Shown here one piece after another: positions 22,386 to 44,885 of a DNA stretch of 64,000 nucleotides. The notes beneath the pieces are model-generated. The model saw only the letters and a program-made list of their open reading frames with translations, searched no databases and had not been told where the DNA came from. Source of the DNA: Thermodesulfobacteriota bacterium (GTDB taxonomy: Bacteria > Desulfobacterota > Desulfobacteria > Desulfobacterales > SURF-7); contig JBMORA010000009.1 of NCBI GenBank assembly GCA_049320885.1, positions 352,001-416,000 on the forward strand, read 5' to 3'. The position numbers and the translations under genes were made by a program. The number at the start of each line of letters is the position of its first letter. The first letter of the stretch is position 1.

Positions 22386-22760
22386 ATGCCAAGAGGAGAT
22401 CGTACAGGACCTTTGGGAATGGGCTCGATGAAGGGCCGTGCATCCGGGTATTGCGCGGGCTATGGGATGCCGGGATACGCGAATTCGGCTCCCAGAAGGG
22501 CTTTTGGGAGAGGCCGCGGCTCATTCGGCGGGTATGGCGGCGGGGGCCGGGGATGGCGGCATATGGTTTATGCCACCGGACAACCCGGCTGGATGCGCGG
22601 GGCGGGAGCCGGTTTTTACGGCACCCCGGCGCCCTATCCGGCCATTGATCCGGCGATGGAAAAACAGGCGCTGCAGAACCAGGCAAGCGCACTGAAGGCG
22701 GAACTGGATTCCATCAACAGGCGTCTTGCCGAAGTCGAAAAAGGCATGGAAACCGAATAG
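22386..22760 (+). CDS. DUF5320 family Gly-rich protein
   Basis: MPRGDRTGP.GMG...GR..GYC; C-terminal coiled coil; RBS AAGGAGG. Confidence 0.85.
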   Translation: MPRGDRTGPLGMGSMKGRASGYCAGYGMPGYANSAPRRAFGRGRGSFGGYGGGGRGWRHMVYATGQPGWMRGAGAGFYGTPAPYPAIDPAMEKQALQNQASALKAELDSINRRLAEVEKGMETE

Positions 22761-31765: not shown

Positions 31766-31781
31766 AGCAAAGGATATGCCA
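31766..31781 (-). promoter_or_regulatory. sigma54 promoter for the nifU-like operon
   Basis: Minus strand TGGCATATCCTTTGCT, GG-N10-GC; AT-rich tract upstream. Confidence 0.7.
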
Positions 31782-32213
31782 TGCTGGCAAGGGAACAGAG
31801 ACTATTGTTTTGACAATGAATAAAATAAATTACATCCGCAGAGGATATGCCCCGGATGTTTTACGATGATGGACAGAAGCGGAATTGCGCCTCATGCATG
31901 TCAGATCTGCGACTCGAAGAGACTGCAGCAGTCAAAGCGGAAGAAAAATCGCTGGGAAATAGCTCCTTCTCCGCAGATCGATGGATGGAGGCATCGAATA
32001 ATCCCGGGGAGTGGCGCTACTTTCAGCATGGTGACGGCGGGTGGCGCTATGGTTGCAAGCCTGAAACCGTGACTTCGCATCGGAATGATTTCTCTTGACC
32101 AAACGCAGAAAAAAACAGATGAATCACTTTATCGCGCATGAGCCTATTTTATTGACATATTGTCGGCCATCGGCAGATGGATTCTGATTGACGGCAGTTG
32201 CCCGAAGCCGACA

Positions 32214-32229
32214 TGGCATTTAACTTGCT
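32214..32229 (+). promoter_or_regulatory. sigma54 promoter
   Basis: TGGCATTTAACTTGCT, near-consensus. Confidence 0.75.
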
Positions 32230-32239
32230 TTTATTAAAA

Positions 32240-32328
32240 CGGTAAGGAGCGAAGCTTGGCGAACTCCCTCCACTCAATACCTCCCTAAAAACAAGCCGGA
32301 CCGGTAAAGACGGTTCGGCTTGTTTTTT
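32240..32328 (+). ncRNA. candidate sigma54-dependent small RNA (or leader) with anti-SD tracts
   Basis: Bounded by a sigma54 promoter and a strong terminator; contains CTCCCTCC and CCTCCCT. Confidence 0.55.
32287..32328. terminator. intrinsic terminator, likely bidirectional
   Basis: AAAAACAAGCCGGACCG-GTAAAGA-CGGTTCGGCTTGTTTTTT. Confidence 0.85.
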
Positions 32329-42286: not shown

Positions 42287-42344
42287 TTGACAGCAGGGGT
42301 GGCGCAACTTATGATCCGATGTAACCAGGAGGTTGCGCCACCCC
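42287..42344 (+). promoter_or_regulatory. sigma70 promoter of the activator overlapped by a 13-bp inverted repeat (candidate enhancer/operator)
   Basis: TTGACA(42287)-17-TATGAT(42310); GGGGTGGCGCAAC-N23-GTTGCGCCACCCC. Confidence 0.7.
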
Positions 42345-42403
42345 CCCCCGGAGGGGTGCGGGAACAAAAAGGGGGCGGGTGCTGATTGTCAGCAGCAGCG
42401 CTC

Positions 42404-43855
42404 ATGGAAAAAAAGGAAGGCAAAGCGAATATGCAACCCATGCCACCATATTCCGTGGATCCGGAATTCGCCACCTTGATGGTCAACGCCATCGCCGACG
42501 GCATTTTTACCCTCGACGAGCAGGGGGTGATCACCTCATGGAATCCGGCCATGGAACGGATCAGCGGTTACAGCGCCCGGGAGGCCATCGGGAAAACCTG
42601 CGACATACTCAACTTCAATCTCTGCTTCGGCAAGCGATGTCCGTCCGGTATCGGTGAATGCCGGGTATATGAAAACGGCCAGGGCGATGACAAGGAATGC
42701 TTTCTGCGCCATAAAAACGGTCATGATGTCCTGGTGGCCAAAAGCGCCCGGCGCGTTCTGGACCAAGCCGGTCATGTGCGCGGCGTGGTTGAAACCATCA
42801 CCGACCTGACGGAGCTGCAAAAAGCCCGGCGCAAGGCTGAGGACGCCGCCATGCGATTGTGCGAAATCCACCGGCTCAACAACATCATCGGCAAGAGCAA
42901 GGTCATGCTGCAAATTTTCGCATCCGTCCGATCCGCCGCGGCCAGCGAGGCGAACGTTTTGCTTCAGGGGGAGAGCGGGACCGGCAAGGAACTGGTGGCC
43001 GGCGCCATCCATTACAACAGCGAGCGCGCCAAGATGCCGTTTGTGGCCGTCAATTGCAGCGCCTTGCCCGAGACATTGCTGGAGAGCGAATTATTCGGGC
43101 ATGTCAAGGGCGCTTTTACCGGCGCCAACCGGGATCGCATCGGGCGCTTCGAGGAAGCGGACGGCGGGACCCTGTTTCTGGATGAAATCGGGGAAATCAG
43201 TCCCTTCATTCAAATCCGGCTGCTGCGGGTTCTCCAGGAACGCATCATCGAGCGAGTCGGTGAATCCAAGAAACGCAAGATCGACATCCGCATCATCACC
43301 GCCACCAACAAGGACCTTTTTTCCCAGGTGGGAAAGGGCGTTTTCCGCGAAGACCTCTACTACCGGCTGAAGGTTTTTCCCATCGATGTGCCCCCCTTGC
43401 GGATGCGGAAAGAGGACCTGCCGCTGCTCATCAGTCATTTCATCCAGCATCAGAACCATAAGACCGGGAAACGGATCAAGGGCGTCGATCCCTCGGTCAT
43501 GCGGGTGCTGATGGATTACAATTGGCCGGGAAATGTCCGCGAACTGGAGAACGCCGTGGAGCATGCCTTTGTGCTCTGCGCCGGCGACTATATCGGCATT
43601 TTCGATCTTCCGGTTGAAATCCGGCAGCTGGGATATCGTCCGGAGATTGTCCAAAATGATCACGGAGGTATCGAACACCCCCGGAAAAAACAGAACCTGA
43701 CCCGCGACAGCCTGGTGGGAGTACTTGCCGCCGGCGACTGGAACAAGGCCGAGGCCGCCAGGCACTTCGGCGTGAGCCGGGCCGCCATTTGGAAATACAT
43801 GAAGAAATGGGATATTCCCATGAGCAAAGCCCCGCAAGACAGCAGTGGTTTCTGA
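42404..43855 (+). CDS. PAS-domain sigma54 enhancer-binding protein (OrpR-like); start 42404 or 42431
   Basis: PAS with C-X7-C-X4-C-X6-[23 protein letters not shown]; Fis-type HTH. Confidence 0.92.
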
Positions 43856-44054: not shown

Positions 44055-44165
44055 TCCGTTTGAAACCTGATATCCCATTCAAAAGAGCATTGATAAAATC
44101 GATGTTTTGGGCTATTGCTCATTAATAAAATCAATAGTCACCTGCAACCATCACAGGAGGTAACC

Positions 44166-44885
44166 ATGCCGGAAAAAATGGAAGTCGGGTGCGCCCGCCC
44201 CACCGGCGGACCCGTGGGGGAAGAGCCGAAAGAAATCGTTACCCCAGCGGAAACCATTCAGAAGGAGGCAACGCCGATGATACGTGTTGGAAAAAAAGCG
44301 CCGGATTTTATCGCGCCCGCCTATCACAAGGGGGCCTTTGTGTCGGTCAAACTGTCCGAGTATCTGGGGAAATGGGTGCTGTTATGTTTCTATCCCGGCG
44401 ATTTCACCTTCGTCTGAGCGACGGAGATTTCGGCAGTTGCCGAAAAACATGCGGAATTCCAGAAGCTGGGGGTCGAGATCCTGTCCATGAGCATCGACAG
44501 CGTTTTCGTCCATAAAATGTGGAATGACAATGAATTGTCCAAGATGGTGGCCGGCGGCGTGCCCTTCCCCATGCTGTCCGATGCCGGCGGCCGGGTGGGC
44601 AAGATTTTCGGCGTGTTCGATGAAGACGCCGGGGTCGAGACCCGCGGCCGTTTCATCATCGATCCGGACGGCGTAGTCCAGGGCTACGAAGTGCTGACAC
44701 CGCCGGTGGGCCGGAACGTGGGCGAATCCATCCGCCAGGTCCAGGCCTTCCAGCTGGTGCGGGAAAGCAAGGGCAAGGAGGCCACTCCCTCCGGCTGGAA
44801 ACCCGGCAAACTCACGCTGAAACCGGGTCCGGATCTGGTGGGGAAAGTGTGGGAGGTCTGGAAAACCACCATGGCCTTTGATTAA
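44166..44885 (+). CDS. prxU: selenocysteine-containing peroxiredoxin (AhpC-like)
   Basis: [12 protein letters not shown](44415)-ATE puts UGA at the peroxidatic Cys; both ORF halves share one frame; RBS AGGAGG. Confidence 0.92.
44415..44450 (+). promoter_or_regulatory. bacterial SECIS element
   Basis: TTTCGGCA-GT-TGCCGAAA hairpin starting 11 nt after the UGA. Confidence 0.75.

Follow-up and report, generated by a model that had tools for sequence, protein, structure and literature searches.

A putative sigma54-dependent small RNA family with predicted pairing to the aprB translation start in an order of sulfate-reducing bacteria

The intergenic unit and its surroundings

The window, as we call the whole stretch of 64,000 nucleotides that was analysed, carries on its plus strand a sigma54 -24/-12 promoter box (TGGCATTTAACTTGCT, 32214-32229), followed by a predicted small RNA of about 86-89 nt (32240..32328, +), whose +1 position was set from the box spacing and which is a member of a family of 67 copies. 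This RNA contains a UUGGC seed segment (32249..32261, +), a first CCTCC (32267..32271, +) that aligns with the loop CCUCC of the family, a second C-rich tract (32276..32288, +; CCTCC at 32281), and an intrinsic terminator (32287..32328, +) made of a 17-pair stem (32287-32303 with 32311-32327) with a T run at its end. The preliminary description of this DNA had read the box, both CCTCC copies and the 17-bp terminator in the same places, and all of them are there, with about 88 nt in between. It had also called the intergenic region apparently empty, which needs correction because the region holds a conserved tandem palindrome of the GTRRCGYYAC type, with its first element at 32011..32020 and its second, carrying one mismatch, at 32041..32050. 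Tandem palindromes of the same type lie at 42299..42341, upstream of a gene (42386..43855, +) that by Pfam encodes a PAS-domain sigma54 enhancer-binding protein with four cysteines in its PAS region. This protein is a candidate activator of the window copy, and the palindrome at 32011 a candidate site for it. A further sigma54 box on the minus strand (31766..31781) is divergent and leads in the window to nifU-like, CGGC, radical SAM, NUDIX and metF genes.

Other features of the neighbourhood were noted. A block of about 50 bp (31868-31918), located 90-140 bp upstream of the divergent sigma54 box, is kept in G002, a genome of the same genus, and is perhaps the own activator site of the divergent promoter. 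The surrounding cluster (22388-43855) includes ORP-like genes (DUF5320, Mrp/NBP35, CGGC, NifU), the sulfur/selenium carriers TusA and YedE-like, metF, RACo, thioredoxin, a rhodanese-fused oxidoreductase, and a multiheme cytochrome-NrfD-ferredoxin module. A peroxiredoxin at 44115-44885 (+) appears as two ORFs because a single in-frame stop, likely a selenocysteine codon, occupies its active-site position.

The genome of the window encodes rpoN and contains 105 strict sigma54-like boxes, 18 of them with a hairpin and a T run within 220 nt; among these 18 no hairpin is stronger than that of the window unit (-27.2 kcal/mol), and no other unit carries two CCTCC. No match to the Hfq model PF17209 was found in this 98% complete genome, the one carrier searched (5 of 14 controls matched), and Rfam gave no relevant match for the window unit at E values up to 10. 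The folding z-score was -4.6 for the whole unit and 0.04 for the portion 5' of the terminator, so that the folding signal is that of the terminator, and the 5' hairpin of the window copy is no better than chance.

Conservation and anatomy of the RNA family

Sequence and pattern searches of 41 and 301 genomes returned G002 as the sole match. Among 40 relatives, this genome retains the box, the core and the terminator within diverged flanks, together with the tandem palindrome at a 30-bp spacing and the divergent sigma54 box; G001 shows similarity to the window unit in the terminator only. The nifU-like operon had been proposed as a perhaps co-activated partner of the RNA. This link is not conserved: the divergent promoter of G002 lies directly before metF, and for most homologues there is no divergent partner at all. 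A metagenome pattern scan yielded at least 120 loci, and among the matches listed there was no homologue, most being ordinary promoter-plus-RBS starts, while the downstream phosphatase used as query in the genome collection scan led to one relevant locus. A model built on two sequences recovered, in G039 of another family, a full-length copy that converges with the 3' end of a 65% identical orthologue of the 42386-43855 activator, and a second copy 8.4 kb away. In 100 neighbourhoods of activator orthologues, units with box, core and terminator were chosen by pattern and by eye, and a 28-sequence model was used for the wider search. Core-bearing copies were detected with this model in 27 of 96 further activator-bearing genomes, in 3 of 58 without a detected activator orthologue and in none of 5 without an orthologue test, a contrast that may be biased by the model having been trained on activator neighbours. 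Of 150 genomes sampled across the phylum, no more than two exceeded 45 bits, both of the same order. The models named R1 and R2 represent terminator structure only, because MAFFT left the basal stem unaligned.

Altogether the family comprises 67 copies in 57 genomes and 27 families of one order of sulfate-reducing bacteria, weak matches without the UUGGC core being left out of this count, and a single genome has up to four model hits. The box, the UUGGC..CCUCC core and the terminator are kept and the neighbouring genes differ; the sigma54 box is found in 66 of the 67 copies and TTGGC in 54. As to two checks proposed in the preliminary description, the promoter-CCTCC-terminator arrangement is kept across the 27 families, and no Rfam family matched, with no match at gathering score in 20 loci either, 15 of which are family members. 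Metagenome contigs X4 and X12, from 2 of 8 DNA runs, span the unit at a depth of 2-3. These contigs of a close relative, from two studies, agree in changes at 32250, 32251, 32253 and 32290; no change is listed in 32254-32289, nor in the box in the contig that spans it, and the A-to-G change at 32290, present in both, leaves the terminator pair as G-U.

In the consensus, the sigma54 box is followed by a purine-rich 5' arm and then by the core UUGGCAUU(U)ACCUCCAU; after a pyrimidine-rich 3' arm comes the terminator. When own 5' and 3' arms were compared with swapped arms, the own pair was better in 25 of 27 families, and the terminator shows compensatory changes and covariation across 28 aligned copies. 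In 47 of 51 homologues the loop CCUCC is predicted to be unpaired with a probability above 0.5, the family mean being 0.80. The window copy is atypical, with a first CCUCC that is less open (0.35), a weak basal stem (hairpin z -0.2; cognate arm residual +1.8) and a strong second tract, whose alternative predicted partners are the RNA's own 5' AAGGAG arm and the aprB Shine-Dalgarno region. A minus-strand micro-ORF with Shine-Dalgarno sequence and start was considered and rejected, being the mirror image of the aprB-like seed and coding for unrelated peptides of 3-48 codons.

The gene downstream, from rough ORF calls in 63 copies, lies on the same strand in 41, on the opposite strand in 19 and is absent in 3. 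Since the identity and strand of this gene vary and a 10-codon frame present in the window copy is not conserved, the unit is very probably a standalone RNA and not a leader. The classification proposed beforehand, a standalone, trans-acting anti-Shine-Dalgarno RNA of sigma54 type, is borne out at the level of sequence: the unit has its own promoter and terminator independently of its neighbours, and a seed predicted to be unpaired and complementary to a conserved translation start elsewhere. Protein sponges of the CsrB/RsmZ type carry many GGA loops, and here 63 of the 67 copies have at most two GGA in their first 90 nt.

Related units were seen alongside. A second kind has a sigma54 box, a hairpin GGAAUGAAG..CUUCAUUCC or similar with a CU-rich loop, CCUCC and a terminator, and is devoid of UUGGC (L160 in G035, L341, L349, L359, L363, L365, L369). 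The one in G035 precedes cheW/cheD-like genes, named by eye from protein sequence, and Rfam gave no match for L160 and L341; this kind is possibly another anti-SD RNA family. Further units made of a sigma54 box, 60-85 nt of CU-rich sequence and a terminator occur across the phylum at 28-38 bits (L306-L319 from the phylum sample, L345, L358, L362, L364, L372), and short sigma54-driven anti-SD RNAs may be common in it. In G162 and G202, variant copies adjoin a typical copy (L326:1886 and L328:1915 being the two variants), with UUGGC paired internally and CUCCUCC exposed.

Predicted pairing with aprB and competing explanations

Read as its complement, the core gives a Shine-Dalgarno sequence and then ATG CCA A, which in the genome of the window leads to aprB (G000:C39:24398-24838), which we take to be the gene of the APS reductase beta subunit and the first of aprBA-qmoABC. 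Positions 32249-32261 are predicted to pair with aprB +2 to +14, from the start codon into codon 5 (12-13 bp, -21 kcal/mol), and 32276-32288 with its Shine-Dalgarno region (9 bp, -13.1 kcal/mol), the first CCTCC being a weak contributor in this copy (-9.5 kcal/mol). The two CCTCC copies had been likened to the pairing seeds of cuckoo RNAs. The comparison shifts the emphasis away from them as the essential seeds: what is conserved and gives specificity is the UUGGC segment, predicted to pair over the aprB start codon, whereas the second C-rich tract forms the basal stem with the 5' arm in homologues, and 49 of the 67 copies have a single CCTCC within the first 62 nt.

By cofolding energy with accessibility, aprB, chosen from the consensus of the homologues prior to ranking, was first among 4482 gene starts called by a simple home-made caller, errors included (-19.0; mean -5.4, sd 3.2), with a thin margin (-19.0 vs -18.8) and a rank of 9 when bare duplex energy without accessibility was used. 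Other starts of the pathway ranked from 1965 to 2759 (sat, dsrC, aprA, qmoC) or 167 (qmoA). Out of 23 starts with ATG CCA in this genome, aprB alone reads ATG CCA AG(C/T); the DUF5320 gene near 22388 (ATG CCA AGA) was discarded as a target for its mismatch to the bases 5' of UUGGC. Foreign homologues, G002 excepted, placed the window-genome aprB 7th to 102nd among about 350 prefiltered starts.

Across carriers, the predicted duplex covers the aprB Shine-Dalgarno sequence and start in 46 of 50 genomes. Cognate RNA-aprB combinations scored better than foreign ones in 17 of 24 families (p 0.011 by Wilcoxon test and 0.015 by permutation), families that are not fully independent of one another; the set consisted of the 50 carriers with a parsed main aprB, G152 being dropped since only a divergent copy was found there. 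The same comparison with the aprA start as control had no effect (0.66, 0.56). The remaining 7 families show no cognate advantage, and the largest effect comes from f88, where an unusual aprB spacer GGAGGGTTCAT is mirrored letter for letter by the RNA. Where CUUGG is kept, an AGC codon in aprB is opposite G in all 7 genomes that have it (3 families), and an AGT codon is opposite A in 19 genomes and opposite G in 7, a pattern to which G+C content could contribute by favouring AGC with G. Intact CUUGG is missing in 14 of the 50 carriers, and the metagenome changes at 32250, 32251 and 32253 would produce one seed mismatch if the aprB of those contigs is unchanged. The ATG CCA AG(C/T) start occurs in 47 of 50 carriers vs 33 of 42 genomes without a detected copy, and of the 56 carriers searched for aprB, 5 yielded none, among them a 99% complete genome.

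Together, these results make it likely that sigma54 RNA polymerase produces from this unit an RNA of about 88 nt, which would anneal to aprB mRNA across its Shine-Dalgarno sequence and start codon and block APS reductase translation. As with other anti-SD RNAs, repression would take place by occlusion, in this case without Hfq, and the output of aprA-qmoABC, downstream of aprB, would drop too. We further regard it as a new RNA family of a known kind, the anti-SD small RNAs, with aprB as a predicted target that the sequence comparisons support well.

Pairing may not be limited to aprB. The AU conserved 3' of CCUCC is without partner in most aprB leaders and matches the dsrA leader AATGGAGGTAAA. 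Leaders of dsrA were obtained from 15 other genomes, 11 of which could be parsed, and the cognate fit was better in 8 of 10 families (p 0.03, a small sample of 12 genomes), the exceptions being f58 and the window copy, for which dsrA is a poor predicted partner (rank 2201). In many homologues the core likely covers the dsrA ribosome-binding site also, the fit being weak in the window copy. A true trans-acting RNA could be a broad, cuckoo-like anti-SD repressor, or have dsrA or another gene as its main target and aprB as a secondary one. Besides the AU, this reading can draw on the 11-38 matches to Shine-Dalgarno plus RTGCCAA in each carrier genome, some of them the RNA's own reverse strand, and on best predicted targets within 1-2 kcal/mol of aprB. 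However, the UUGGC seed runs past the Shine-Dalgarno sequence into aprB codons 2-4 and follows the changes of aprB, and dsrA as main target is at odds with the poor fit of the window copy, so that we consider this reading rather improbable.

Whether or not a genome carries the RNA, its aprA start (ATG GCA TTA CC) is complementary to the region around the aprB start (L273:8357-10839 and about 90 further aprBA loci), with a weak predicted pairing of -11 kcal/mol. The core has the same sense as these first aprA codons, and the RNA might accordingly be imagined as a decoy that titrates a protein or RNA binding at the aprA start or competes with a long-range aprA-aprB pairing, the more so as nearly all genomes examined share that aprA start. 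But 244 of the 4482 starts equal the aprA-aprB pairing in strength, the pairing is the same with and without the RNA, and the bases flanking the core are antisense to aprB and not sense to aprA, which makes a decoy very unlikely.

Slightly less plausible still than the decoy is that the unit acts on the PAS-SpoIIE phosphatase gene as its leader or attenuator, in which the 10-codon frame (TTG at 32256, after AAGGAG) would stall the ribosome through its Pro-Pro end on the 5' arm of the terminator and allow read-through. The spacing from Shine-Dalgarno sequence to TTG is canonical, the stop lies at the terminator base, the phosphatase starts 77 nt further on in both G000, the window genome, and G002, and the two contig variants list no change within the frame. 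Against this, the inner spacer of the core varies from 1 to 10 nt and shifts the frame, the peptides differ and range from 5 to over 40 codons, and in G002 itself the frame has 48 codons with no stop at the corresponding place. Moreover, the phosphatase is the next gene in just 2 of 63 copies, those of G000 and G002, and the G001 phosphatase (45% identical) has no such unit upstream; neither a conserved frame nor a conserved downstream gene, as expected of a leader-peptide attenuator, was found. Equally remote is a unit unexpressed in the window genome, whether as a degenerating remnant of the family or as a DNA site bound by a protein. For this reading the weak basal hairpin and a terminator unlike the usual one of the family could be cited, but G002 keeps box, upstream palindromes, seed and terminator despite diverged flanks, and the aprB fit of the window copy is above the family mean.

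Candidate activators, known systems and possible meaning

The RNA proposed to repress aprB would be turned on by a cysteine-rich PAS activator, in the window probably the 42386-43855 protein acting through the palindromes at 32011 and 32041. Orthologues of this protein are present in 123 of 301 genomes of the order, and an exact GTRRCGYYAC was found upstream of 51 of 101 of them, compared with 9 of 101 coding controls and 0 shuffles. The palindrome is not enriched upstream of the other RNA copies (10 of 61 vs 6 in shuffles), precedes the RNA in tandem in G000 and G002 only, and a tandem search of 301 genomes matched 9, below the reversed control. A second PAS sigma54 activator lies directly upstream of the RNA, on the same strand, in 25 of 63 copies, and both activators have four cysteines in the PAS region. 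Because the palindrome is typical of the first activator and its tandem form before the RNA is confined to G000 and G002, the first activator likely drives the window copy and the second one the copies elsewhere. Of 102 activator loci, 77 contain thioredoxin genes and 22 contain RACo, and since these and flavodoxin genes recur nearby, the activating signal is probably a redox or Fe-S cue.

A second copy of aprB or aprA is found in 4 of the 102 activator loci. Divergent second aprBA pairs lie in or near the activator cluster (L300-L303, L211, L254, L327), with AprB 71-75% and AprA about 50% identical, and the pairs of G035 and G246 each have an RNA copy in divergent orientation to them. Five of seven second aprB copies begin CCT, CCC or CCG, and two CCA.

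Several known systems resemble parts of this arrangement. In the available part of PMC10746234, NfeR1/alpha-r14 of Alphaproteobacteria, of cuckoo type, is described as trans-acting and Hfq-independent, with an unpaired C-rich anti-SD motif that blocks translation start and stems of variable sequence, all of which recalls the present family. However, alpha-r14 has three hairpins, each with CCUCCUCCC (PMC10746234), whereas the present RNA has one 5' hairpin besides its terminator, with a single CCUCC, and in addition a UUGGC seed predicted to read the start codon; the present family also differs in its sigma54 promoter, its phylum and its lack of an Rfam match. CJnc230/FlmE of Campylobacter jejuni, according to the accessible text of PMC11187230, is likewise about 90-100 nt long, RpoN-dependent, and represses translation through a single-stranded anti-SD sequence, but it is processed from flgE mRNA and acts on flagellar genes, unlike the window unit with its own promoter and terminator and a predicted target in energy metabolism. 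DseA of Desulfovibrio vulgaris is also a trans-acting RNA of a sulfate reducer, presented by its authors as the first RNA with a regulatory role in Desulfovibrio; as far as the accessible portion of 10.1101/803072 describes it, it is a SAM-I riboswitch made from a sigma70 promoter and has sahR as its target, so that neither structure nor target is related to that of the window RNA. On the side of the activators, the available part of PMC8359166 describes OrpR of D. vulgaris as an Fe-S redox sensor active at low redox potential, similar to the present activators in its PAS plus sigma54 activator architecture, its conserved cysteines and the ORP-like genes nearby (Mrp/NBP35, NifB/NifX, DUF5320, CGGC). 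It has three cysteines (C52, C61, C65), the site GGGCGYRTTTTGCGCCC and a regulon of two orp operons, whereas the present activators, compared by spacing and site, have four cysteines in another spacing and a GTRRCGYYAC site, and differ from the OrpR regulon on both counts. Desulfobacteraceae are major sulfate reducers of sediments (available part of PMC11887813).

Neither an RNA regulator of aprB or dsrA nor a small RNA of this order was found in a literature search covering titles and abstract openings, with few subscription papers, and transcriptome supplements could list the RNA unnamed; a term look-up in the accessible parts of PMC4641369, PMC11887813, PMC11124144 and 10.1101/803072 returned no aprB. 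The preliminary view that the RNA has no described equivalent therefore stands within this search and Rfam. The RsaE-type RNAs of Staphylococcus direct a C-rich, unpaired UCCC motif against ribosome-binding sites of metabolic genes; the present family differs from them in phylum and promoter type, and in having no Rfam match.

The core enzymes of sulfate respiration are usually regarded as constitutive. It is conceivable, though we hold it less probable than the pairing with aprB itself, that this order-wide family is a master brake on dissimilatory sulfate reduction, in which one loop would read both the aprB start and the dsrA ribosome-binding site under the control of Fe-S redox-sensing sigma54 activators and without Hfq, and that in some lineages it helps to exchange the housekeeping APS reductase for an activator-adjacent second aprBA, CCT or CCC taking the place of CCA at the start of several of these second copies. 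With a conserved RNA for which target, seed and candidate sensor are named, the throttling of sulfate respiration becomes directly testable. If the proposal is true, counts of aprB and dsrA transcripts, a common gauge of activity, could give too high an estimate of enzyme synthesis.
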